This document shows, in pieces, positions 51,254 to 62,947 of a DNA stretch of 64,000 nucleotides. The notes under the pieces are model-generated. The model made no database searches. It was not told the origin of the DNA and saw only the letters and a list, made by a program, of their open reading frames with translations. Both the position numbers and the translations under genes were made by a program. The first letter of the stretch is position 1. Each line of letters starts with the position of its first letter. Source of the DNA: a phage. The stretch lies in assembly GCA_011816565.1 (NCBI GenBank), contig GCA_011816565.1_3614.1; one strand, given 5' to 3'.

Positions 51254-51712
51254 AGGAGGATTTCTAAAATGGATTTCCTCCTTTTGATATTTTACCTGCC
51301 AGGATATTTTAAAATCCTTAGAAAATCAGAAAATGGATCGAAAACTAAAATGGATTTTTCAGAGTAGGCGCGACAAGCTGAATCACTCATCCTACCGTTT
51401 GCACCATATTCCAGACCACCATTATAGATTTCCCGCACATGCTTACATCTCGCTACTAGAACTTCCTCCACTTACCCTTGACCTTTTATAGCAATAATCC
51501 AACCACTATCTTGAAGTTGCGGTGCAGCTTTCCAGGTACTCGATCTGTTTTTCGTTTCAAAGATTGAATTTTCTGAAAATTTTTCTCGATAAATTTCTCA
51601 GTACTCGATCTGTTTTTCGTTTTCTGAATCGGATTTTCTGGAAATCGCTCCGGCTCTTGGCCTAAAATTTTTGGGGACGAAATCGATTTTTCGTTTTCAG
51701 AAATGGATTTTT
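51254..51712. repeat. AT-rich iteron-like direct repeat region
   Basis: Three copies of (GTAC)TCGAT(CTG)TTTTTCGTTTTC at about 51536, 51601 and 51681, each with TTTTCTG(A/G)AAAT; at least four copies of (C/A)AAAATGGAT; hairpin AGGAGGA...TCCTCCT at 51254-51282. Confidence 0.55.
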
Positions 51713-51830
51713 AAAATTTCTATACGGGAATATTTTATGGGATACTGTTTTATAGGAAATTGTTACGGAGGGTAATTAGCGTGCTAATTAAATTTATTAA
51801 ATGCGAGGAGTTCTCATTTAGAATTTTGAA

Positions 51831-52034
51831 TGATAATCATTCTCGTTTGCAGAATAACGGGCAGGCCCGGTGATTGTCTCCCGGCCCCTACTGCCCCGGC
51901 TTGTTATTATAGTAACACACAGGACAAAGAAAGCAAGAAGTTTTTGCATAAATTTTTAGACGATAATGATAATCGTTCTCATTTCATGCAGCGCCCATCC
52001 CCGGTGGTTGTCTCCCCCGTCACCGGTGCCTGCC
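51831..52034. repeat. GC-rich structured repeat (two tandem units)
   Basis: Units at about 51831-51890 and 51967-52020 share TGATAATC(A/G)TTCTC...CCGGTG(A/G)TTGTCTCCC; 5' GGCAGGCCCGGTG and 3' CACCGGTGCCTGCC are complementary. A shorter inverted copy lies at 60983-61025. Confidence 0.5.
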
Positions 52035-52058
52035 GTCCTTTCGATAGGTATATTTTGC

Positions 52059-52198
52059 CACCTGGCGGGGCCGCTGTCAACACTTTTCAAAAAAAAATTC
52101 TAACCTGATGCGCTGACCGCTGCAACCTGGCGGGGCCAGCCTGGCAGGGCCTAACTGACCAGGTAGGAGAGAATGAAGGCTTGCAAACCTGGTGGGCC
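52059..52198. repeat. direct repeats of ACCTGGCGGGGCC
   Basis: CACCTGGCGGGGCC (52059), CAACCTGGCGGGGCC (52123), AACCTGGTGGGCC (52186); a fourth variant lies inside the next small ORF. Confidence 0.45.
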
Positions 52199-52239
52199 TA
52201 TGCTATAGGATAGGTAACAATTGAAGAGGAGGTACAAAA

Positions 52240-52416
52240 ATGGAAGGTAATATGATCCCCCTGGAAAATGTAGCTATTAATGACGCTGAGGCTATCGCCC
52301 TGGTTGAAAAGGCTATGGCGGGAGCGTTGGAACATAAAGAAGAGTACGAAAAAATGATGGTTAACCTGGCAGGGGCGGCGGCTGGAGAATTCCGCCCAAA
52401 AAATAATTTTAACTAA
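52240..52416 (+). CDS. hypothetical small protein (58 aa; not in ORF track)
   Basis: ATG 7 nt after GAAGAGGAGG; stop overlaps the next track ORF start. Confidence 0.35.
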   Translation: MEGNMIPLENVAINDAEAIALVEKAMAGALEHKEEYEKMMVNLAGAAAGEFRPKNNFN

Positions 52417-52502
52417 TGGTTGACAGCTCGGACAGTTCTTGTTATTCTTATCCTCGCAAGGTGAACAACACCACACTAATTAACAGAGAGGATAAAAAAA
52501 TC

Positions 52503-52700
52503 ATGAACGCCTACGGAATCAAAGTACGTCGCAACGCTCGCCAGGTGGTCACCGATCAAATGGTTTGCCAGGTGGACGTAACCATCAACAACGGGCAAGG
52601 CCTTTATAAATTCCGTCGCGGTCAGAGCTATACCCGGCACCAACTTAATCGTTGCGCCCTGACAAAAGGTCAGATCAATCACTGGTTTAATAAAAAATAA
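52503..52700 (+). CDS. hypothetical small basic protein
   Basis: Start at ATG after GAGAGGATAAAAAAATC; the track ORF start at 52416 lies in a TTGACA-N17-TATTCT promoter-like sequence. Confidence 0.4.
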   Translation: MNAYGIKVRRNARQVVTDQMVCQVDVTINNGQGLYKFRRGQSYTRHQLNRCALTKGQINHWFNKK

Positions 52701-52703
52701 GTA

Positions 52704-52732
52704 TTGACATATAGTCCGACACCAAATACACT
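52704..52732 (+). promoter_or_regulatory. sigma70-like promoter (TTGACA-N17-TACACT)
   Basis: Upstream of 52765. Confidence 0.45.
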
Positions 52733-52764
52733 AAAAGCACAAAAGACACTAAGAGGATAAAATC

Positions 52765-53163
52765 ATGAAAACCACTACCTTTAATTTTGATAATGCAGAC
52801 TTTTCTTTTTCTGATGTCAAGAACTGCCGCCGTGATCGTGGATTTTACAAGGCTTATAATCTGGTGGGCCTGGACGATGACAATAATTTGCACGAAGTAG
52901 CTGAGATCCGGTATTATGCCGCCGCCAGCGGGAACACTTACTACTGCGTTTTTTGGATACACGACAACAAGAACAATAAGTACGGCTATACTGGCGGCAA
53001 GGCGAGCGGTCACGGTTATGATAAAGCTAACGCAGCACTTGAGAGCGCATTAAATGCTATGGGGATCACTGCCAACGGCTGGATCTACGAAGAAGAGTTT
53101 TTGTCAGCACTTGCTGACCACCTAGGCTATAAAAAGCACATTGTAACATGTGCCCACGAATAA
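52765..53163 (+). CDS. hypothetical protein
   Basis: 132 aa with RBS (AAGAGGATAAAATC). Confidence 0.5.
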   Translation: MKTTTFNFDNADFSFSDVKNCRRDRGFYKAYNLVGLDDDNNLHEVAEIRYYAAASGNTYYCVFWIHDNKNNKYGYTGGKASGHGYDKANAALESALNAMGITANGWIYEEEFLSALADHLGYKKHIVTCAHE

Positions 53164-53212
53164 AAAAAAAATTATTGACACGCTGCAAAATTCAAGTAAA
53201 CTAGACACAAAA

Positions 53213-53231
53213 GGCGGGAATGTTTCCCGCC
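53213..53231 (+). other. 5' leader hairpin GGCGGGAA-TGTT-TCCCGCC
   Basis: GC-rich inverted repeat between promoter and RBS of 53251; near-identical hairpin at 55764 and related ones at 53897 and 56479. Confidence 0.5.
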
Positions 53232-53250
53232 AGCACAAAGGAAAAAGATC

Positions 53251-53655
53251 ATGAATAAGAACGTACGCCGCATCATGAACGAGTTGGCAAACGATGAAAA
53301 AATTATTGACATGCATTTGATCAACATTTGCCGCCGTTGTGTAACATATAACAACCGCGCCGCAAAAGCGCGTGAGATGAACGCAAAAGGCACCTTAAAG
53401 CCATTCCAGGTGGTGGTAAAGGCCATTAAAGATGTAACTAATACGGCAAACCAGGTACAGGGGAACACCAACGAGAGTACCAATATTGATCCGGCTTACA
53501 TCATGAAACGGATCCGGACCTGCAAGAACAAAGAGCAAGTGTATAATATCATAGACTGGTTGGATTCTATGGGCGATGTGGTTTACAATAGGTTTTCTGC
53601 AGCTATCGAGATCCAGCTTGACAGGTTGGACGGTAAAGTACTGAAAACTTACTAA
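53251..53655 (+). CDS. hypothetical protein
   Basis: 134 aa with leader hairpin and RBS. Confidence 0.5.
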   Translation: MNKNVRRIMNELANDEKIIDMHLINICRRCVTYNNRAAKAREMNAKGTLKPFQVVVKAIKDVTNTANQVQGNTNESTNIDPAYIMKRIRTCKNKEQVYNIIDWLDSMGDVVYNRFSAAIEIQLDRLDGKVLKTY

Positions 53656-53703
53656 GTTTATTTTTAGATGGCCTTGACTTCAGGGCCATCAATAAAGTAA
53701 ACT
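53656..53703. repeat. 48-bp intergenic hairpin repeat, copy 1
   Basis: GTTTATTTTTAGATGGCCTTGACTTCAGGGCCATCAATAAAGTAAACT; stem GATGGCC/GGCCATC with TTGAC in the loop. Confidence 0.55.
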
Positions 53704-53856
53704 AATCTCAACTAAGCGAAAAAATGGGGCTTTAAGATGAGCACTACACGCCAATACACAAAGGTAACTATTATCGTTTGCGTTGTCGGTTACATCCTGG
53801 CGCAAATGTTAATGAGTAGCGCTAACAGTTTTGCAAAATTTTTCTTAAATTTTTAA

Positions 53857-53884
53857 TTGACAAACTAACTTAGATCGATATACT
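53857..53884 (+). promoter_or_regulatory. sigma70-like promoter (TTGACA-N16-TATACT)
   Basis: Upstream of 53936, followed by leader hairpin GGGAA-AAC-TTCCC. Confidence 0.45.
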
Positions 53885-53935
53885 TAAACACGTAAACGGG
53901 AAAACTTCCCAGAGCACACAAAAGGAGAAAACACC

Positions 53936-54277
53936 ATGACTACTATGACCGCCGCAGAAAAAGCTATGCAGATCGCCGCGCTGAAAAAACAGATCGCAGA
54001 CCTTGAGAACAAGATCGATAACTTTGAAATCGACGAGGACAAGTACGACGAAAACTATGATGAATGGTTAGACGAGATCTACGGCGAAATTATGATCGGA
54101 AACATTTCTTTTCTTCCGTCGCGTATCCTCAAGGAGCTAGATCCTATCGCTTACCGCTGCGGATTTAGCGACTACATCGACAGCCTGGATATTGAGGAAG
54201 ATGAAGAATACCAGGAACTACAGACAGAGTTAGAAGAAGCAAAAGAAGAGCTTGCGGAGCTGGAAGAAAACGAGTAA
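53936..54277 (+). CDS. highly acidic small protein
   Basis: 113 aa, very rich in D/E (DNFEIDEDKYDENYDEWLDEIYGE...LDIEEDEEYQELQTELEEAKEELAELEENE), coiled-coil-like N-terminus. Confidence 0.5.
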   Translation: MTTMTAAEKAMQIAALKKQIADLENKIDNFEIDEDKYDENYDEWLDEIYGEIMIGNISFLPSRILKELDPIAYRCGFSDYIDSLDIEEDEEYQELQTELEEAKEELAELEENE

Positions 54278-54278
54278 G

Positions 54279-54325
54279 ATTATTTTTAGATGGCCTTGAC
54301 TCCAGGGCCATCAATAAAGTAAACT
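54279..54325. repeat. 48-bp intergenic hairpin repeat, copy 2
   Basis: TTATTTTTAGATGGCCTTGACTCCAGGGCCATCAATAAAGTAAACT directly after the stop at 54277. Confidence 0.55.
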
Positions 54326-54366
54326 TTATACTGTTAACACTGAACTAATTCAGAGGAGTTAAAACC

Positions 54367-54612
54367 ATGGCAGCACTAATCACCAAATATTATGCCCCTA
54401 CCAACACCAAAAGCGCCCGTATCATGGTAAAAGGTTTCGGACGTAAAAAGGTTTACACCTGGGATTATGCCTTAGACACGGAAGACAACTACACCAACGC
54501 AATGACCGATTTTATTAATGATCTGAACACGCGGATCTTGACAAATTATAAAATTACCGATATTGCCTATATAGGGGAAGGCGGGATCTGTTTTGTCGGT
54601 ATCGTCAAATAA
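54367..54612 (+). CDS. hypothetical small protein
   Basis: 81 aa with RBS (GGAG); followed by a degenerate copy of the hairpin repeat (54613-54660). Confidence 0.45.
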   Translation: MAALITKYYAPTNTKSARIMVKGFGRKKVYTWDYALDTEDNYTNAMTDFINDLNTRILTNYKITDIAYIGEGGICFVGIVK

Positions 54613-54687
54613 GCTGTTTTTTCGGTGGTCCTGGTAGCAGGGCCATCTATAAAGATAGTTTATCAACACAATGAAAGGAGAAAGTAC

Positions 54688-55041
54688 ATGATCAGCGGGG
54701 CAAGTTTTATTATTGGCGCTATTGCTACGGCTTTAATTGTAAACAAGATCCAATCTAAAAACGAAAAAGAGAGCAACGCGCTCACAGAATACCCATTTTG
54801 GGTATTCAACGACAATGAAGACTACATTATCAAGTACAAGAATGAGAAGGGCGACCAGGTAACACCGCGACCGATCCCAGCTTACAAGATGCAAGAAACA
54901 CTATACCGCCTAAAGGCTGGAGGCGCAAAAATCGTAGACTTTTGGGGATATGATTGCAAGGATCAGGAGGTTATAAAGCGCCGTATCCGGGCTATTCAGG
55001 CCAATATTGAAGTTAGCAAGGGGGGAATATATGAAGATTAA
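54688..55041 (+). CDS. predicted membrane-anchored protein
   Basis: Start at ATG after AAAGGAGAAAG (track ORF from 54625); N-terminal TM segment (ISGASFIIGAIATALIV). Confidence 0.45.
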   Translation: MISGASFIIGAIATALIVNKIQSKNEKESNALTEYPFWVFNDNEDYIIKYKNEKGDQVTPRPIPAYKMQETLYRLKAGGAKIVDFWGYDCKDQEVIKRRIRAIQANIEVSKGGIYED

Positions 55042-55228
55042 TTTTGAGAAGATTGTAAAGCGATCTCATGATTCCAAAGAGCTGCCGGAACGACGCCAGC
55101 GCAACAATAAACTGAATAAGCCAAAAAGATTTGGGAAGATCTGGCGGAATCATTATGATCGTAAATTGCCGGGCCTACTTTTGGAACGTGAACGACAGGC
55201 GGAACGATACCGCCACAAAGGCAAATAA
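55031..55228 (+). CDS. hypothetical small basic protein
   Basis: Start at ATG after AAGGGGGG (track ORF from 55007); Lys/Arg-rich. Confidence 0.4.
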   Translation: MKINFEKIVKRSHDSKELPERRQRNNKLNKPKRFGKIWRNHYDRKLPGLLLERERQAERYRHKGK

Positions 55229-55236
55229 CAACCAAC

Positions 55237-55264
55237 GCCCCGCCATTGTGCGGGGCTTTTTTAT
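55237..55264 (+). terminator. rho-independent terminator
   Basis: GCCCCGC-CATTGT-GCGGGGC hairpin followed by TTTTTTAT. Confidence 0.6.
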
Positions 55265-55410
55265 TTCTATCCTACGAATATCGCCCCTGGTTGGCCCTGT
55301 AAACGCCATAAAAGCCCCTACCTATGCAATCCCCTTTCTTAACCTGAAAACAGCGTCTAGGGCCGTTTTATGGCGTTAAAAATGTTATTGACAGTGATTT
55401 TATTTAAAGC

Positions 55411-55439
55411 TTGACACCTTGGAATAGTCCGGATATACT
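55411..55439 (+). promoter_or_regulatory. sigma70-like promoter (TTGACA-N17-TATACT)
   Basis: Second of two TTGACA hexamers upstream of 55475. Confidence 0.45.
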
Positions 55440-55474
55440 GACCACATCAAAGCAAGAAGGAAGGAGTAAACGCC

Positions 55475-55735
55475 ATGCGTAAATTGAAAAATTTTGATAA
55501 GGTAGATGTAGTACTGAATAATTTTTACTACTGCAATAATAAAGCCGTTTGGTGGCGTGATAGTTCCACCGATAAAGTTAAGGCGCGCTTTCTCCAAGGG
55601 CACTGGCAAAGCCGTCCAGTGATTAAAATCTTGGGGCAATTGGTAGCGTTTAAAAATTGCCGCCGTGTTGACGACGTTGAAGAGATCTTGAACATTTTGC
55701 GCCACAATAATTTAAAAAATAGTGTTGACAAGTAA
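55475..55735 (+). CDS. hypothetical small protein
   Basis: 86 aa with RBS (GGAAGGAG). Confidence 0.45.
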   Translation: MRKLKNFDKVDVVLNNFYYCNNKAVWWRDSSTDKVKARFLQGHWQSRPVIKILGQLVAFKNCRRVDDVEEILNILRHNNLKNSVDK

Positions 55736-55752
55736 ATCTCAATAAGTATAAT
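55725..55752 (+). promoter_or_regulatory. sigma70 consensus promoter (TTGACA-N16-TATAAT)
   Basis: Followed by leader hairpin GGCGGGAAAACTTCCCGCC (55764-55781) and RBS of 55810. Confidence 0.55.
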
Positions 55753-55809
55753 TAAAAACACAGGCGGGAAAACTTCCCGCCACTAACAAAGAAAACAGGA
55801 GAAAATATC

Positions 55810-56433
55810 ATGACCACCGTTAACATTACCACAGGTTGCAATTTATCTTTCGACGTGCTGACCGACGAACAAAAAGAAAAAGCTATTGAAATGGTCCGCG
55901 AAAGAGAAGAACACAGCGGAGAGGATTTTTTCGCAGAAAGTGTAATTGAATATTATAAAGAGCAAGTTTTTCCAGAGTACGGCCTTGAAGATACCGATGT
56001 ACATTGGTCCGGCTTTTGGTGCCAGGGTGACGGCGCGTCAATCAGTGCTGAAAACGTGGATTTAGAAAAATTCTTGCGTAAAGTAAAGGCCCTGACCAAG
56101 TTCCGATCAATTCGTCACTTGTTTGGCACAATGCATGATGGCGAGTTATCAGCCAGTATTGAACGCGACAAGTACAGCCATTACAGCCATGAAAACACTG
56201 TAAGCGGATACATTGATACCACCTGGCTAGATCTGACCGCCAAACAAGAAAACAAAGTGGAAGACCTGGAAGAGCTGATCACCGAGACGGTACGGGAGCT
56301 ATCCCGCAAGGTTTACGTAGACCTGGAGGAGGCCTATCTAGAACAGTTCACTACCGAAAACCTGATCGGCCTTATTGAGGCCAATGATTGGCGGTTTGAT
56401 GTGGATGAATATGGAGAGATGAGTTTTTCATAA
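55810..56433 (+). CDS. hypothetical acidic protein
   Basis: 207 aa; promoter, leader hairpin and RBS (AGGAGAAAA) upstream. Confidence 0.55.
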   Translation: MTTVNITTGCNLSFDVLTDEQKEKAIEMVREREEHSGEDFFAESVIEYYKEQVFPEYGLEDTDVHWSGFWCQGDGASISAENVDLEKFLRKVKALTKFRSIRHLFGTMHDGELSASIERDKYSHYSHENTVSGYIDTTWLDLTAKQENKVEDLEELITETVRELSRKVYVDLEEAYLEQFTTENLIGLIEANDWRFDVDEYGEMSFS

Positions 56434-56522
56434 ATAAAGTGTTGCAATAATCTAAAAACTTGCTATATTAAAACTCAAGGGGGCAAGACGTTTGCCCCAC
56501 ACAAAACAAAGAGGAAAACATT

Positions 56523-56903
56523 ATGAAAAACACTACTAAAGCTATTGACACCGTTATGTTTAACCTGGTTACCTTTCGCGAGGATATGAAAGATCTTCCA
56601 CGTGAAACAGTGTGCGATCACATTGAAAACTATCGCAAACTAATCAAAGAGTTGCCTTTAAAACGTGACCAGTATGCGGCTAACGCTATGCTCAACGCCA
56701 TGATCAAAAAGATGATTCAGTGTGATTTAACCCTGGCCTATGATTATGCAGGTGGTCGTTTTGCAGTATACAATCAGCCCGTGCCTGGTATGGGCACCAC
56801 CAAAGAATTGCACGCGCTCAATCTAAAACAAGACGTGTGGGATAGTATGCCCCGCGTGGTGGTGTGGGCAGAAAGCGGAAAGATTTACGGCGATAATTTT
56901 TAA
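56523..56903 (+). CDS. hypothetical protein
   Basis: 126 aa; TTGCAA-N17-TATATT promoter-like sequence and leader hairpin GGGGCAA-GACG-TTGCCCC upstream. Confidence 0.5.
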   Translation: MKNTTKAIDTVMFNLVTFREDMKDLPRETVCDHIENYRKLIKELPLKRDQYAANAMLNAMIKKMIQCDLTLAYDYAGGRFAVYNQPVPGMGTTKELHALNLKQDVWDSMPRVVVWAESGKIYGDNF

Positions 56904-56967
56904 TCAGGTAACAGGCGGCATATTTGCCGCCTTATTGTTAAACAGAACTGCAAAAGAGGTACATAGA

Positions 56968-57339
56968 ATGGAATTTATTATTTTGGCCGTATTAGTTTCC
57001 TTGTTTAACGCCTGGATCGCTGGCAAGATGGGTAGATCCGCCTTTTTATGGTTTATTATATCTATTTTCCTGGGGGTGGTTGCAACTATTGTACTTGTTA
57101 TCCTTGCAATTGTTGACAAAGGCGATAATAGAAAGGGTAAAGTATTTTCCGACCTGTATGACGCGCAAACATTTGTCAACGCCTATTATAGTGATCTTCC
57201 AGTCTCCCTACGCTGCAGCCTTGCACAACAGGTTTTCGATGAAGCTAAAACCAGAGATCACGCCCATGAGATTTGTTTAACTGAGGCGGATCGCCTATTT
57301 GAGAGGAATAGAAAATATGTGGGCCAGCCGTTTAAATAA
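56968..57339 (+). CDS. predicted membrane protein
   Basis: Start at ATG after AAAGAGG (track ORF from 56935); two hydrophobic helices (FIILAVLVSLFNAWIAG; LWFIISIFLGVVATIVLVILAIV). Confidence 0.45.
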   Translation: MEFIILAVLVSLFNAWIAGKMGRSAFLWFIISIFLGVVATIVLVILAIVDKGDNRKGKVFSDLYDAQTFVNAYYSDLPVSLRCSLAQQVFDEAKTRDHAHEICLTEADRLFERNRKYVGQPFK

Positions 57340-57562
57340 TACCACGTTAATTAATCCCTTTGATGAAGATTTGAAGCCAGCCGCCTGGCGTGATGGATTC
57401 AATAACGAACGCTTTATTTTCAGGCCTGATCTTAAGGAATTTTATAACAATGGATCGAACAACGACAGAGATAATTTTTCTTGTGATGTGCGTGGTGATG
57501 GTACTCCTGGGGGCCATTGTAAACCACGTCACTACTACCAGGATGAAAGGGGGAGACGATGA
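57317..57562 (+). CDS. hypothetical small protein
   Basis: Start at internal ATG after GAGAGGAATAG (track ORF from 57299). Confidence 0.35.
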   Translation: MWASRLNNTTLINPFDEDLKPAAWRDGFNNERFIFRPDLKEFYNNGSNNDRDNFSCDVRGDGTPGGHCKPRHYYQDERGRR

Positions 57563-57678
57563 CAACCAAGGATAAGCCCCGCACCGATAAGGTGCGCCGG
57601 GTTATGGTATGGCTTGAGATCATCGCCTTTGAAATATTGTTAGGCGTAGGGATGTATTTTATCGCTGTAAGTAACTGA
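57559..57678 (+). CDS. hypothetical small membrane peptide (39 aa; not in ORF track)
   Basis: ATG overlaps upstream stop (ATGA); hydrophobic C-terminal half; followed by terminator. Confidence 0.25.
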   Translation: MTTKDKPRTDKVRRVMVWLEIIAFEILLGVGMYFIAVSN

Positions 57679-57682
57679 TAAC

Positions 57683-57713
57683 GGCCCCCGATCCCTGGGG
57701 GCCTAACTTTTTC
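57683..57713 (+). terminator. rho-independent terminator
   Basis: GGCCCCC-GATCCCT-GGGGGCC hairpin followed by TAACTTTTT. Confidence 0.55.
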
Positions 57714-57818
57714 AAAAAATTTTTCTTCCGGGGTGTTGCAATCCGGTCCGAAATATGGATAATAATAATCAACGGGGAGCTAATCCCCACCAACACAAAA
57801 ACAGAAAGGAGAAACAAA

Positions 57819-58019
57819 ATGAGCAACAATATCCGCGTTATTAACTTCAAAAAAGAAGAAAAAATTGCCGTGCTGATTGACGGTCAAGAAATCTTCAAGG
57901 GCTATTATGAAGATCATCAAACTGCGATTAGTATCACTCGCGTGATCGGTTACCATAATTTCTACCCCCAAGGCGCTGAGGCAGCAGTTAAACGAATCAA
58001 AGAGATTGTAGGCCTGTAA
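57819..58019 (+). CDS. hypothetical small protein
   Basis: 66 aa; TTGCAA...ATATGGATAATAA promoter-like sequence and RBS (AAAGGAGAAAC) upstream. Confidence 0.45.
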   Translation: MSNNIRVINFKKEEKIAVLIDGQEIFKGYYEDHQTAISITRVIGYHNFYPQGAEAAVKRIKEIVGL

Positions 58020-58068
58020 ATTTATTTTTAGATGGCCTTGACGCCAGGGCCATCAGTAAAGTAAATTT
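58019..58068. repeat. 48-bp intergenic hairpin repeat, copy 3
   Basis: TTTATTTTTAGATGGCCTTGACGCCAGGGCCATCAGTAAAGTAAATT directly after the stop at 58019. Confidence 0.55.
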
Positions 58069-58111
58069 TAATCGTGGTAAAATAACACGCAGTTAACAAG
58101 GAGTGATAAAC

Positions 58112-58411
58112 ATGTTTATCCTGGCTAATAATCTTTATTTCTTTGATGGTCAGATCGTAGACGGTGTGGAAGTGGAGATCACTGGGTGCCCTGGTGGTCA
58201 GGCTATGACTTTTCGGAATAATGCCTTTGATGATTCTCATATCGTTATGAGAATGGAAGTTACAAAGCTGGACGACAAGAAAACGCTCATTGACTATTCC
58301 GTGAAAGATCATCCAGACTACCACATGATCTATGGTGATTTGTGCATTGTTGACCGTGACAAGGTGGGCGGCATTGTGATCGCTATTGTGAACGATGTTT
58401 TCTCTGTATAG
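58112..58411 (+). CDS. hypothetical protein
   Basis: Start at ATG (track ORF begins at an upstream GTG, 58103) after AAGGAG. Confidence 0.45.
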   Translation: MFILANNLYFFDGQIVDGVEVEITGCPGGQAMTFRNNAFDDSHIVMRMEVTKLDDKKTLIDYSVKDHPDYHMIYGDLCIVDRDKVGGIVIAIVNDVFSV

Positions 58412-58471
58412 TTCCGGCAAATGATGCAAAATAAGGCCCCTAGCAGGGCCTGCAGCGATATAATCACATAA

Positions 58472-58503
58472 AGGCTATGCGGTTGCATGGCCTTTATTAT
58501 TTT
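58472..58503 (+). terminator. rho-independent terminator
   Basis: AAGGCTATGC-GGTT-GCATGGCCTT hairpin followed by TATTATTTT. Confidence 0.5.
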
Positions 58504-58636
58504 GGCGTTACAGCGGCCTCCAAGGCACTTAAAAATTTTTTAAAGAAGTACTTGCATCAAGCCCTACAATATGGATAATAAGAGTTGTCGAGGGGGGTTA
58601 TGCCTCCAATCATTAACAGAAACAGGAGTTAAAACC

Positions 58637-58921
58637 ATGGCTATTGTTACCGCTGGCGATGTAGTAAAAATGGAAGCGAAGTATTTAAAAGCTGGTATGC
58701 ATATCATCCGCAATGATCTTGAACTGGTCCTCACTATGGTTGATTATAACCCTGGTCAAGATTATCCAAGCATCGACTACTTTTTTGAGTATGTTGATGA
58801 AGAGTTGAAAGAGGATGAGGCCTATTGCGGTGAGTTCTGCAACTTCTTTTGTCCTGATGAGGTTGTAAAGGTTATCTATCAACCTGGCGTACCTTTCCCG
58901 CTACACGCTATCAATAAATAA
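58637..58921 (+). CDS. hypothetical protein
   Basis: Start at ATG after ACAGGAGTTAAAACC (track ORF from 58571); conserved leader as in neighbouring genes. Confidence 0.45.
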   Translation: MAIVTAGDVVKMEAKYLKAGMHIIRNDLELVLTMVDYNPGQDYPSIDYFFEYVDEELKEDEAYCGEFCNFFCPDEVVKVIYQPGVPFPLHAINK

Positions 58922-58976
58922 ACCGGGCGGGGCCGAAAAGGCCCCCAATTATGAAAATAAAGAGAGGCAAATCATC

Positions 58977-59210
58977 ATGATGGAACAAATTAAACGCGCC
59001 GAGGCTATTAATGGCAACGTGATCTATTTTGTCAGCAAAAACGAAAAAGGCGTACCATATGCGGCAGTAATAGTACAACCTGACGGCGATTATTGGTTTA
59101 CTGTGTACGGCGCTTATTCTTTTGGGCGTCCAGTGCATGATAAAATTTTGAAAGTAGCGAACCCTACCGGGAAGAATATCACAGCAGAAAAATTTTTTGA
59201 AAATAGTTGA
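58977..59210 (+). CDS. hypothetical small protein
   Basis: 77 aa with RBS (AAGAGAGG). Confidence 0.45.
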   Translation: MMEQIKRAEAINGNVIYFVSKNEKGVPYAAVIVQPDGDYWFTVYGAYSFGRPVHDKILKVANPTGKNITAEKFFENS

Positions 59211-59234
59211 CATGACCATATAAGACTGTAATAT
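59207..59234 (+). promoter_or_regulatory. sigma70-like promoter (TTGACA-N16-TAATAT)
   Basis: Overlaps the 3' end of 58977-59210; upstream of the 59286 small ORF. Confidence 0.45.
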
Positions 59235-59285
59235 ATAAATCAAAGGGGGCAACGAACCCCACCAACTACAAAGAGGATAAAAATC

Positions 59286-59465
59286 ATGGCTATTATTGCA
59301 AAGACTGAGATCGTAGGCTTAGATTCTATTCTCCTCGCATATGAGGAAGCTATAGAAATGTATGTGGTTTCCTATGGTGAGTATATCCGTGAATATAAAT
59401 CTATTGATCTGGCTTTTGAATGTTATATCCGCCAGGTTAATAAAGCGTACGATGATTATCGTTAA
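59286..59465 (+). CDS. hypothetical small protein (59 aa; not in ORF track)
   Basis: ATG after AAAGAGGATAAAAATC, same leader style as neighbours. Confidence 0.35.
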   Translation: MAIIAKTEIVGLDSILLAYEEAIEMYVVSYGEYIREYKSIDLAFECYIRQVNKAYDDYR

Positions 59466-59552
59466 AATAGTTTGACAACAGCCATCTTACAAAGCATAAT
59501 ACATAAGGCGGTGGAATGGTCCGCCACCTGGAACAAAGAAGAGGTAAACACC

Positions 59553-59798
59553 ATGAAAAGCAATAAAGGTTATAACGGTTACAAAAACAAAACTCATTGG
59601 AATGTAAGCCTTTGGATTAATAACGATGAGTCATTGTACCGGTTGGCCCAAGACTTTATTAACGCCAATGCTAATCGTAATGATGCGGCGCGGGATATGA
59701 TGCTTTTTCTGGAGCTAACCGGACAAGATAAGACCCCGGACGGCTTCAAGTACAGCACTACGGCGATCCGTGCCGCGATGGTTGGAATGAAACACTAA
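59553..59798 (+). CDS. hypothetical small protein
   Basis: Start at ATG after AAGAAGAGG (track ORF from 59472 begins at the TTG of a TTGACA promoter hexamer). Confidence 0.45.
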   Translation: MKSNKGYNGYKNKTHWNVSLWINNDESLYRLAQDFINANANRNDAARDMMLFLELTGQDKTPDGFKYSTTAIRAAMVGMKH

Positions 59799-59875
59799 AA
59801 GCACATAGCCGCCTTACCCTGGGGCTGTGGTAGCGGCCCCATGAATAAGGTTACTAACAGAAGAGAATAAACACC

Positions 59876-59980
59876 ATGAAACAGAAATTAATCGATGCAG
59901 TGATCTTGGTTATTGTCCTGGGTATCGGCCTGATTGCAACCATGGCTAATGTGATCTTGTCTTCCAACGGTATCGGGTGA
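59876..59980 (+). CDS. hypothetical hydrophobic peptide (34 aa; not in ORF track)
   Basis: ATG after AGAAGAGAATAAACACC; mostly hydrophobic (AVILVIVLGIGLIATMANVILS). Confidence 0.25.
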   Translation: MKQKLIDAVILVIVLGIGLIATMANVILSSNGIG

Positions 59981-59989
59981 GGTTGGCAA

Positions 59990-60205
59990 ATGATCACTAA
60001 CAAAACAGGCAAAACAGAATTTTTACGCAACTTACAGATCGGCAAGCCTGAGATCTGGCATTGCACTAAAACACCACGGGACGAAATGAAAGACTTCACC
60101 GCCACGCTACAACGGGTAAAGATATCTATCACGCAGAAAAAGGCCTTACTAGTGGTGGAAGGGGAGATCCCCCAAACCGTTGTTATAGTTGAGCGTACAG
60201 CATAG
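59990..60205 (+). CDS. hypothetical small protein
   Basis: 71 aa with RBS (GAGG); preferred over the antisense ORF 59854-60246. Confidence 0.4.
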   Translation: MITNKTGKTEFLRNLQIGKPEIWHCTKTPRDEMKDFTATLQRVKISITQKKALLVVEGEIPQTVVIVERTA

Positions 60206-60296
60206 TTTAATTTATACCGATACCCGAAAATTAACCGACAAAGCATAAACAGGCGGTTACCGCCGCCTTAAACGTAGCAGAAAGAGGATGGACACA

Positions 60297-60581
60297 ATGA
60301 AAAAGATGATCGCAGTGGTTGCCCTGGTTGTTGGACTTAATGCGCCTGTAATGGCTAAAGAGCTGGCAAAAGAGGTTAATCTAACGGATATTCATGCCGT
60401 CAATCAAATCGGGGTTACTTATCGCTTATGCCTTGCCGCTAAAACTTTTAAGGACGGCACAACAGAGTACTACGGATTCGAGGGTATCCGGTGCGGTGAG
60501 CTTGCTCGCGACCTTAAGGAAGATCCAGACCTGGAGGATCTGCCCATAACCGTGAACGGGAAAACTTACGTGAACCGTTAA
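60297..60581 (+). CDS. small secreted protein (signal peptide)
   Basis: Start at ATG after GAAAGAGG (track ORF from 60288); N-terminal signal peptide (MKKMIAVVALVVGLNAPVMA). Confidence 0.45.
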   Translation: MKKMIAVVALVVGLNAPVMAKELAKEVNLTDIHAVNQIGVTYRLCLAAKTFKDGTTEYYGFEGIRCGELARDLKEDPDLEDLPITVNGKTYVNR

Positions 60582-60583
60582 CC

Positions 60584-60718
60584 ATGAGAAAGATAATTAT
60601 CACCTTGGGGATTGTGGTGGCAATATTGGCGCTCTTTCCCCTTATGGTTAGATATGTACTGATCGGTATTGTCCTGGCAGTCAGTGATCTATTGGAAACG
60701 GTTGGCACCTTGTTTTAA
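60584..60718 (+). CDS. hypothetical membrane peptide (44 aa; not in ORF track)
   Basis: ATG 3 nt after upstream stop; predicted single/double TM (IIITLGIVVAILALFPL...LIGIVLAV). Confidence 0.25.
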   Translation: MRKIIITLGIVVAILALFPLMVRYVLIGIVLAVSDLLETVGTLF

Positions 60719-60730
60719 AGAGCGGTAAAA

Positions 60731-60922
60731 ATGAATATCGAACAAGTCAGAAAGGTATTGGCGGTACTGCGTTATCATAATCATAGAAAGGTCATAGACG
60801 ATCCTGATTATGTCGATTCAAGCCTGGAAGGGGATACACTACAAGCCATAAGCAACATGCAAGAATTGCTAAAGCGCATGACAGAGAAAAACCGACCGGA
60901 CTACATAGGCGAAAAAATATAA
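60731..60922 (+). CDS. hypothetical small protein
   Basis: 63 aa; followed by terminator. Confidence 0.4.
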   Translation: MNIEQVRKVLAVLRYHNHRKVIDDPDYVDSSLEGDTLQAISNMQELLKRMTEKNRPDYIGEKI

Positions 60923-60936
60923 TATTTATAAACTAC

Positions 60937-60968
60937 AAAACAGGGCTTGCAATGGTCCTGTTTTTTGT
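60937..60968 (+). terminator. rho-independent terminator
   Basis: AAAACAGGGC-TTGCAATG-GTCCTGTTTT hairpin followed by a T-run. Confidence 0.5.
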
Positions 60969-60982
60969 TATACTTGTTTCAC

Positions 60983-61025
60983 GGCAGGCACCTGGCGACG
61001 GGGGGAGACAATCACCGGGCCTGCC
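60983..61025. repeat. GC-rich element, inverted copy
   Basis: GGCAGGCACCTGGCGACGGGGGGAGACAATCACCGGGCCTGCC; its reverse complement joins the 5' part of the 51860 unit and the 3' part of the 52001 unit. Confidence 0.5.
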
Positions 61026-61050
61026 TGTCATATAAGAACTATAAAAACCG

Positions 61051-62338: not shown

Positions 62339-62947
62339 TCTGCTCTTCCCCCTACCATAAACGGCCCTACCTGACAAGTGGAATAATTGACGAGCCATCA
62401 ATCCCGCACACTGTACAAATATACATGTAAAATAGTTATTGCATAACCTTTCATTGTGTGGTAGCAGGGCTATTTTTACCCGTTTTCCCTTCCAAAATTG
62501 CACGTAATGCCGCTATTGCACAAATTTTAACCTGATGCAGATCTTCAATATCTTGTCAACAAGTAAAAATTCTTATAAGTCATACACTTACACAAACTAA
62601 AAAGCGTGTTCTACGCGAAAAATCGAGTATAACTATAGCCGCCAGATCTCAGAATTCACGTACGCACGCCATTCTATAGCCTGCAAAGTATTTATTCCAA
62701 CCACAGAATAACGGAATAGCCAATACCTGCATAAAATAATTATTCGTGTAAACTGCATAACATAAATCAGCTCAGGTGTCAACATTTTTCGTAAACAGTC
62801 CGAAATTATCACGATGAGTTATCATAAACAGAGAAATCTTTAGTCGTCTAATGTTTACTGTACATTACTATACTGACTGGAATCATTAGATGACTAAGAG
62901 AAAGATAAGAAATAATTAATAATGTGATTATTTTACCTGTAACAATA

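Follow-up and report, generated by a model that had tools for sequence, protein, structure and literature searches.

A two-tier hairpin repeated between early genes of rV5-like coliphages, a conserved mRNA structure and candidate RNase III processing signal

At 64,000 nt, the stretch of phage DNA analysed here (the window; contig GCA_011816565.1_3614.1 of GenBank assembly GCA_011816565.1) comes from an rV5-like Escherichia coli myophage (Vequintavirus), as judged from the matches of region 53000–58500. This region matched 124 phage records at 90–97% identity, nearly all of them rV5-like E. coli Vequintavirus myophages, with JES2013 and navn as the best matches. It contains small plus-strand open reading frames (ORFs) without known function. 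Near-consensus sigma-70 promoters precede small early ORFs at 53175, 53857, 55411, 55725, 56442, and 57736, and a terminator scan called intrinsic terminators at 55237 and 57683. Between these ORFs lies a repeat with a unit of 55 nt, which is present in four copies and is the subject of this report. The copies are given below, each with the cut that is predicted for it from an alignment to the early RNase III sites of phage T7:

53655–53703, plus strand: copy 1, after the stop of the gene at 53251–53655; lower stem 53655–53664/53694–53703, 5' internal loop 53665–53666, upper stem 53667–53676/53681–53690, tetraloop ACUU 53677–53680, 3' internal loop AAU 53691–53693; predicted cut after 53693.
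54277–54325, plus strand: copy 2, after the stop of the gene at 53936–54277; lower stem core 54280–54286/54316–54322, upper stem 54289–54298/54303–54312, loop ACUC, 3' internal loop 54313–54315; predicted cut after 54315.
54609–54663, plus strand: variant copy, after the stop of the gene at 54367–54612; 13-bp lower stem 54609–54621/54651–54663, upper stem GGUGGUCCUG/CAGGGCCAUC 54624–54633/54638–54647, loop GUAG, 3' internal loop UAU 54648–54650; predicted cut after 54650.
58018–58068, plus strand: copy 4, after the stop of the gene at 57819–58019; lower stem 58018–58028/58058–58068, upper stem 58031–58040/58045–58054, loop ACGC, 3' internal loop AGU 58055–58057; predicted cut after 58057.

The first-pass annotation of this DNA had described three near-identical copies and one variant directly after stop codons, and this description holds. 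Copies 1, 2, and 4 (the main copies) match a 44-nt consensus at 43 (53658–53701), 44 (54280–54323), and 42 (58022–58065) positions and the variant (54615–54658) at 30; the best unrelated position on either strand of the window reaches 26–27. The pattern GATGGCC-N10-GGCCATC, with up to two mismatches, occurs four times in the window (53667, 54289, 54624, and 58031, all on the plus strand), as against 0.18 occurrences expected from shuffles. The copies begin 1–2 nt past TAA stops (53653–53655, 54275–54277, 54610–54612, and 58017–58019), and the register of the stop codon within the repeat unit is constant. Under the model built from the repeat itself, copies 1, 2, and 4 score 83, 81.6, and 76.9 bits, respectively.

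The copy count in complete genomes and relatives, which had been proposed as a check, gave exactly four copies in the 136.9-kb genome of JES2013 with the repeat model, all on the gene strand and within 4.4 kb. With blastn, a 59-nt copy was found in 121 phage records, almost all of them from Vequintavirus and nearly all with three places per genome. No blastn match to the repeat was detected in 5,426 complete E. coli genomes, and a host-derived intergenic repeat similar to repetitive extragenic palindromes (REP) or bacterial interspersed mosaic elements was rejected on these grounds. Klebsiella phage KP13-26 and Serratia phage ChuuTotoro have homologous early regions, which were searched for diverged copies with the repeat model and a model of the T7 sites; nothing convincing was found. 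When IMG/VR was scanned for exact matches to CAGGGCCATCNNTAAAG, 49 stretches came up, among which two rV5-like contigs were real and the rest were rejected by the model. A partial match at 62459 of the window was rejected as a copy because it does not fold. Rfam gave no hit at the four sites at E-values up to 1, the motif is not listed in the rV5 genome paper or its promoter and terminator table, and literature searches on the motif, the Vequintavirus transcriptome, and RNase III in rV5 yielded nothing relevant. As a regulatory element the repeat is real, if fairly ordinary, and it was previously undescribed for the rV5-like group.

The plus-strand RNA of each copy forms a two-tier hairpin. 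Its upper stem comprises 10 G+C-rich base pairs with one U.G pair (GAUGGCCUUG/CAGGGCCAUC) and is topped by a tetraloop. The lower stem comprises 7–13 A+U-rich pairs, and in every copy its base includes the final one or more nucleotides of the stop codon. An internal loop of 2 nt (UA or UC) facing 3 nt (AAU, AGU, GAU, or UAU) separates the two stems. The stem had initially been given as the 7 bp GATGGCC/GGCCATC, which needs correction: it extends to 10 bp (GATGGCCTTG/CAGGGCCATC, with one U.G pair), and its A+T-rich flanks pair as the second, lower stem. Likewise, the TTGAC box that this stem was said to enclose is enclosed only in part, as the AC is located in the tetraloop and the TTG belongs to the stem. 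Fold energies on the plus strand are –25 kcal/mol for copy 1 (z –6.9), –23.5 for copy 2 (z –6.1), –28.2 for the variant (z –7.0), and –25.1 for copy 4 (z –4.7). Minus-strand folds are weaker, at –10 to –17 kcal/mol and z –0.7 to –2.6 (copy 1, –16.9 and –2.6; variant, –10.1 and –0.7), because the U.G pairs turn into C-A mismatches on that strand. A sliding fold of the whole window found 275 regions at –19 kcal/mol or below and is too unspecific for classing hairpins.

Conservation of this fold was assessed on 32 copies (24 of them distinct) from ten sources, namely the window, A51.2, DrSchubert, JES2013, ime, ECP26, rV5_ev146, two IMG/VR contigs, and KKE7M. Among the distinct copies, 99.0% of pair cells hold standard pairs, compared with 35–58% when the 3' partners are slid by 1–3 columns, and none of the shuffles equals the observed covariation score. 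Double-sided changes are seen at four pairs of the lower stem (A-U to U-A, U-A to C-G, U-A to G.U or A-U, and G-C to A-U), and the three variable pairs of the upper stem change solely to wobbles that are valid on the plus strand. The variant retains all pairs through three wobble and three or four compensatory changes. Most of the covariation signal is the contrast between main copies and variant, so it represents few independent events. The 2x3 internal loop is kept across the 32 copies (2x4 in one IMG/VR copy). Loop positions 3–4 are free to vary (TT, TC, GC, or AC, with a 5-nt loop in contig L002), unlike the stems. We conclude that the structure is conserved and selected on the sense RNA, and we consider it highly probable that the repeat acts, in the broad sense, as a cis-acting mRNA hairpin.

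The same data bear on two other explanations of such a hairpin. If the repeat were the binding site of a sequence-specific protein, it could serve either as the DNA operator of a dimeric regulator recognising GATGGCC-N10-GGCCATC or as the RNA operator of a phage RNA-binding protein. The perfect 7-bp inverted repeat with its 10-bp spacer in the main copies would suit such a site, as would the stem sequences, which are unusually uniform among the copies and across more than 100 genomes. However, two positions of the variant depart from the DNA palindrome but still pair in the RNA through G.U, the lower stem covaries, and no candidate regulator was found among the neighbouring ORFs. A DNA operator was rejected because the wobbles are strand-asymmetric; an RNA-binding protein is conceivable, but we regard a protein-binding site overall as very unlikely. 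An intrinsic terminator was also rejected. The hairpin is followed by AAUAAAG on the plus strand and by UAAAAAUAA on the minus strand and thus lacks a U-tract on both, and the four sites were called neither by the terminator scan of the window nor by the terminator annotation of phage Alma. The earlier statement that this is not a canonical terminator in either orientation, the T-run being 5' of the hairpin on the plus strand, is therefore borne out.

Another two-tier hairpin is found at 59807–59855, after the stop at 59798. Its G+C-rich upper stem of 10 bp has a bulge, ends in a GGUA loop, and is joined through a 2x2 internal loop to a lower stem of 6 bp. The structure folds at –25.3 kcal/mol (z –2.9), and its 3' half is 75% identical to the variant copy. 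This hairpin may be a diverged fifth member of the repeat that was overlooked by the repeat model.

Processing of early mRNA by RNase III is a textbook feature of phage T7. Five T7 sites (R0.3, R0.5, R1, R1.1, and R1.3) were folded for comparison, at coordinates that we take to be those of Dunn and Studier (1983). They form a G+C-rich upper stem of 9–10 bp with a U.G pair, a loop of 3–5 nt, and an A+U-rich lower pairing. In all but R1.3, whose stem is nearly continuous, the upper and lower stems are set apart by an asymmetric internal loop. A covariance model derived from these five sites alone was run without filters over both strands of the whole window (128 kb). It returned six hits, among which copy 1, copy 2, the variant, and copy 4 rank 1, 2, 4, and 5 (E-values 0.037, 0.048, 1.6, and 3), and it aligns the four copies over their full length in one register. 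Reciprocally, the repeat model applied to 7.6 kb of T7 early DNA gave two hits only, the RNase III sites R1 and R0.3.

Rank 3 in the search with the T7-site model is held by a perfect 13-bp hairpin at 58460–58508 (AUAAAGGCUAUGC/GCAUGGCCUUUAU, then UAUUUUGG), which contains the conserved UGGCCUUUAU of T7. It is present in a single copy, is conserved across 104 Vequintavirus records, and has a terminator annotation in phage Alma. This hairpin could act as a terminator, as an RNase III site, or as both.

Substrates of E. coli RNase III are hairpins of about two helical turns (about 20 bp, including non-canonical pairs), in which internal loops confine the enzyme to single cuts and leave a protective 3' hairpin (PMC1540722). 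The distance from cut to loop is at least 11 bp, the sequence of the tetraloop is not a requirement, position 2 of the proximal box excludes G-C and C-G, and the canonical distal box is UA/UG (PMC1540722). With 10 bp in the upper and 7–13 bp in the lower stem, all four copies here amount to about two helical turns. An internal loop is present in the 32 copies compared and would be expected to limit cleavage in the same way, and the free variation at loop positions 3–4 agrees with the lack of a tetraloop requirement. In the T7-aligned register, the main copies have A-U at position 2 of the proximal box, where the variant has G.U. Only the main copies have U.G at position 2 of the distal box, which in them is the third pair counted from the loop; position 1 of the distal box is C-G. 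In T7, the cut presumably falls after UAU on the 3' side of the internal loop, and alignment to this point yields the cuts predicted above. Provided that this position holds, the distance from cut to loop is 11 (ten standard pairs plus a non-canonical internal-loop position), as in native R1.1. The published rules are compatible with the repeat, but the fit is imperfect, and poorer for the variant.

Each of the three main copies lies 3' of the first gene behind a standard 5' module, consisting of a promoter and a 5' hairpin:

53175–53231, plus strand: 5' module of cassette 1, promoter TTGACA-N16-TAAACT (53175–53202) and 5' hairpin GGCGGGAATGTTTCCCGCC.
53857–53912, plus strand: 5' module of cassette 2, promoter TTGACA-N16-TATACT (53857–53884) and 5' hairpin GGGAAAACTTCCC; left edge of a segment shared with phage KKE7M.
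57736–57790, plus strand: 5' module of cassette 4, promoter TTGCAA-N16-GATAAT and 5' hairpin GGGGAGCTAATCCCC.

A common module of this kind begins every early cassette (53120–53253, 53805–53938, 55675–55812, 56395–56525, and 57686–57821). In order, it comprises an A/T tract, (GTG)TTGACA or TTGCAA, N16–17, TATAnT, about 10 nt, a G+C-rich hairpin of the GGCGGGAAnnnTTCCCGCC type, and CACAAAA..AGGAG..ATG. The 5'-terminal hairpin of these early modules probably stabilises the mRNA.

By analogy with T7, the repeat may quite possibly be an intercistronic processing and stabilising signal of the RNase III type, an assignment that we make tentatively and that is the most likely of the mechanisms considered here. 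An RNA processing site was one of two readings offered by the first-pass annotation, the other being a recombination element. It is the better supported of the two, given the wobble and compensatory changes on the sense RNA and the T7-site architecture. According to this proposal, the host RNA polymerase would transcribe the early operons from the near-consensus sigma-70 promoters, and right past the stop codon each copy in the transcript would form a hairpin about two helical turns long. This quasi-continuous helix would be recognised by host RNase III, which would introduce one nick in or beside the 3' side of the internal loop, so that the upstream cistron would keep a protective 3' hairpin and the downstream cistron would be freed on a separate RNA. 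Since the cistron upstream of each main copy is the first gene behind a promoter and 5' hairpin, cleavage would yield a monocistronic mRNA with a hairpin at both ends. At the DNA level, promoter-like hexamers of the main copies could act as a weak internal promoter, and the copies, being repeated regulatory DNA, are also recombination substrates for deletion or transfer of cassettes.

Several observations weigh against this assignment. The scores of the copies under the T7-site model are weak (12.6–20.6 bits), and the reverse complements of the T7 sites score alike (14.7–19.2 bits); the likeness to T7 is therefore one of shared geometry and not of homology or common descent. With the copies aligned to T7, the pairs at positions 1 and 3 of the proximal box and at position 1 of the distal box are not the optimal ones, and the variant has G.U at position 2 of the proximal box and lacks the distal U.G. 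The near-identity of the stems among copies exceeds what RNase III would need and could be explained by gene conversion or a sequence-specific binder. Loop positions 1–2 are invariant in the main copies (AC, completing TTGAC) while positions 3–4 vary, which fits a –35 constraint better than pure structure. There are just four copies in a genome, and the deposited genome of rV5_ev146 is devoid of copies 1 and 4, so these copies, and any effect of them, are dispensable. The literature searched contained no transcript-end or rnc-mutant data on rV5-like phages.

As an alternative, the hairpin could be left uncut by RNase III. Such a passive intercistronic stabiliser or insulator could block 3' exonucleases once the RNA has been cleaved elsewhere, in the manner of REP sequences, or tune the termination and re-initiation of translation. 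Consistent with this, a stable and conserved sense-strand hairpin follows right after the stops, every copy has the stop codon in the base of its lower stem, and neither the proximal nor the distal box is optimal for RNase III. However, an exonuclease block needs the G+C stem alone, whereas the compensated A+U-rich lower stem, the fixed 2x3 loop, and the two-turn length are marks of an RNase III substrate, and the T7-site model picks these hairpins among the many others of the window. We consider the purely passive role unlikely.

The invariant AC of the loop is part of a pair of sigma-70-like hexamers carried by the main copies:

53674–53703, plus strand: copy 1, TTGACT-N18-TAAACT, 9 of 12 matches.
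54296–54325, plus strand: copy 2, same arrangement as in copy 1.
58038–58067, plus strand: copy 4, TTGACG-N18-TAAATT.

These hexamers (TTGACN-N18-TAAAYT) invite comparison with the promoter early stem-loops (PeSLs) of T4-type phages. In a PeSL, an early promoter is joined to a stem-loop (terminator); the promoter consensus varies between near-perfect sigma-70, as in RB49/phi1, and looser forms, as in PST and nt-1, and the preferred location of PeSLs is in hyperplastic regions (PMC4122927). A composite element of this type, with a hairpin that damps or ends the upstream transcript, a promoter that re-initiates transcription, and repetition that shuffles the early genes, would make the repeat a DNA boundary. 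Several findings speak for it. The hexamers match sigma-70 at 9 of 12 positions, including A-11 and T-7. The pattern TTGAC-N19-TAAAYT occurs four times in the window, as against 0.10 expected, and three of these matches are repeat copies. The first two loop bases are invariant and the next two variable, and the –10-like AAGTAAACT is the same as the –10 context of the promoter at 53175–53202 and of the resident promoter of phage muut. Against it, 9/12 matches are found at about chance density (34 in the region versus 19.8 +/- 4.5 in shuffles, with the strong promoters counted in), a spacer of 18 nt is not optimal, the copies in the window, unlike every strong promoter there, are not followed by a 5' hairpin module, and the lack of a U-tract means that the hairpin is not an intrinsic terminator. 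In addition, the variant has neither hexamer (CTGGTA ... GATAGT) and keeps the full RNA structure by compensation, so it is the structure that is selected. A composite promoter element as the primary function, the main rival of the RNase III assignment, is doubtful to us, although the hexamers may provide a weak internal promoter as a secondary function.

Gene gain and loss at the repeats, which the first-pass annotation had suggested as breakpoints to look for, provides the remaining evidence on this point. It concerns the following segment:

53704–54325, plus strand: 622-bp cassette between copies 1 and 2, with a 39-aa ORF (53737–53856), a promoter (53857–53884), a 5' hairpin, a 113-aa gene (53936–54277), and copy 2.

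Exactly these 622 bp are missing in at least four GenBank phages (ime, ECP26, ECP32, and phiWec189) and in IMG/VR contig L041, with the junction inside the repeat. In all four phages the fused junction of copy 1 and copy 2 is one contiguous piece; in ime and ECP26 the alignment blocks overlap within the repeat, and the copy in L041 is a hybrid, flanked on its 5' side as copy 1 is and on its 3' side as copy 2 is. Queries with synthetic junctions found no copy 1–copy 4 or copy 2–copy 4 fusions in 121 records, a result that counts against the composite element, just as the copy 1–copy 2 indel, seen in at least five genomes, counts for it.

A second case was identified in KKE7M, a phi92-like phage of a different subfamily, which has window positions 53856–54329 at 94.7% identity. 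The right edge of its cassette lies at the 3' end of copy 2, so breakpoints of both the indel and the transferred cassette fall within the repeat. Relative to muut, a cassette-free relative of KKE7M, the left crossover is within a promoter, and the right crossover is in the AGTAAAYT of the repeat, which matches the –10 region of the resident promoter. As a consequence, the 5' hairpin of the downstream gene stays at its native distance of 11 nt from a –10-like hexamer. This placement of the junction exactly in the motif likewise favours a composite promoter. The 5' modules are themselves repeated DNA and supplied the left crossover of this cassette. KKE7M also has several other short segments of window 51811–60203, at 69–93% identity and in changed order. 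This indicates that early genes have been exchanged repeatedly between its subfamily and the one studied here.

Two further length differences were considered and rejected as products of the repeat. In rV5_ev146, there are two deletions in the early region relative to the window, 53237–53749 (0.5 kb) and 55176–61010 (5.8 kb). With them, about a dozen small ORFs are lost along with two hairpin copies, and this block therefore appears dispensable; the deletions are not bounded by repeats. A difference of about 345 bp with phage A51.2 was located after 58404.

It is demonstrated, then, that the repeat is a recombination point for early gene cassettes, as a side role. The suggestion that it is a recombination element like the PeSLs holds for its association with the indel and the cassette; by definition it is not a PeSL, since the promoter match is a weak 9/12 that overlaps the hairpin, the variant is without it, and there are four copies in a phage that is not T4-like. 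In terms of the properties of PeSLs, the copies flank indels, a composite promoter was not found, and neither was multiplication in a hyperplastic region (the four copies of JES2013 lie within 4.4 kb). Recombination seems to follow from the repetition of regulatory DNA and not to be the selected function. The stronger notion is that the 3' hairpin and the promoter/5'-hairpin module delimit self-contained early cassettes, which would move from Vequintavirinae to Stephanstirmvirinae by recombination from –10 to –10, with the embedded promoter mimic keeping the downstream gene expressed. As a purpose-built exchange system in non-T4 phages, and not an incidental by-product, it seems to us quite improbable.

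The ORFs near the copies have no informative domains, with one exception. The 65-aa ORF at 55031–55228 is a homologue of the T7 gene 1.1 protein (Pfam PF08200, Phage_1_1, E-value 3.8e-10, above the curated cut-off), which makes it an early gene common to this rV5-like myovirus and T7-like podoviruses. It is located two genes 3' of the variant copy, and T7 gene 1.1 itself follows site R1.1; this parallel in gene order is suggestive only. Two other features were noted. At 51529–51719, where no convincing ORFs are present, a 52-nt unit occurs in three direct copies (62–100% identity, spacing of 65 and 74 nt). They probably correspond to the box labelled "non-coding" on the rV5 genome map and could be iterons or other arrays of binding sites. 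A G+C-rich motif, GGGAGACAATCACCGGGCCTGCC, forms a 29-nt inverted repeat (51854–51882 and 61003–61031) that is 93% complementary over a separation of 9.1 kb, with a partial third copy at 52000–52018. Its surroundings are locally very G+C-rich and strongly folding, which is unusual in this A+T-rich region.

Phages of the rV5/Vequintavirus group are widely used in therapy and typing. In the papers and annotations that we checked, RNase III processing of early mRNA is not reported for them. If the assignment to RNase III is true, it suggests that unrelated coliphages have converged on one host nuclease for producing hairpin-capped monocistronic early mRNAs. The cassette edges in regulatory motifs offer landmarks for the loss and trade of small early genes between phage subfamilies and extend the T4 "regulatory cassette" idea to another group of phages. 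For the engineering of phages and operons, moreover, the 55-nt unit offers a candidate part with an insulating or stabilising role.

Compared with known systems, the repeat resembles an intrinsic terminator in having a G+C-rich hairpin directly past a stop codon and differs from it in that the T-run lies 5' of the hairpin and A-rich sequence comes after, on both strands. Similar to PeSLs (PMC2839356, PMC4122927), it is a repeated stem-loop with promoter-like motifs bordering small variable early genes and is tied to indels between close relatives and to cassette exchange. Unlike in PeSLs, the hexamers are weak (9/12, with an 18-nt spacer), overlap the hairpin, and are absent from one copy, there are four copies per genome, and the real early promoters of the rV5-like phage have a stem-loop downstream and not upstream. 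The comparison with the T7 early RNase III sites reveals differences as well: the repeat has no detectable sequence homology to T7, its internal loop is 2x3 as opposed to 4x5, its lower stem has a greater length and reaches into the stop codon, its proximal and distal box pairs are just partly canonical, and its host phage is an unrelated myovirus. In contrast, the architecture is shared. In both cases, a family of similar hairpins is placed between the cistrons of early transcripts made by the host polymerase, and each hairpin combines a G+C-rich upper stem of 9–10 bp with U.G, a short unconstrained loop, and an A+U-rich lower stem over about two helical turns; every copy of the repeat and four of the five T7 sites also have an asymmetric internal loop.

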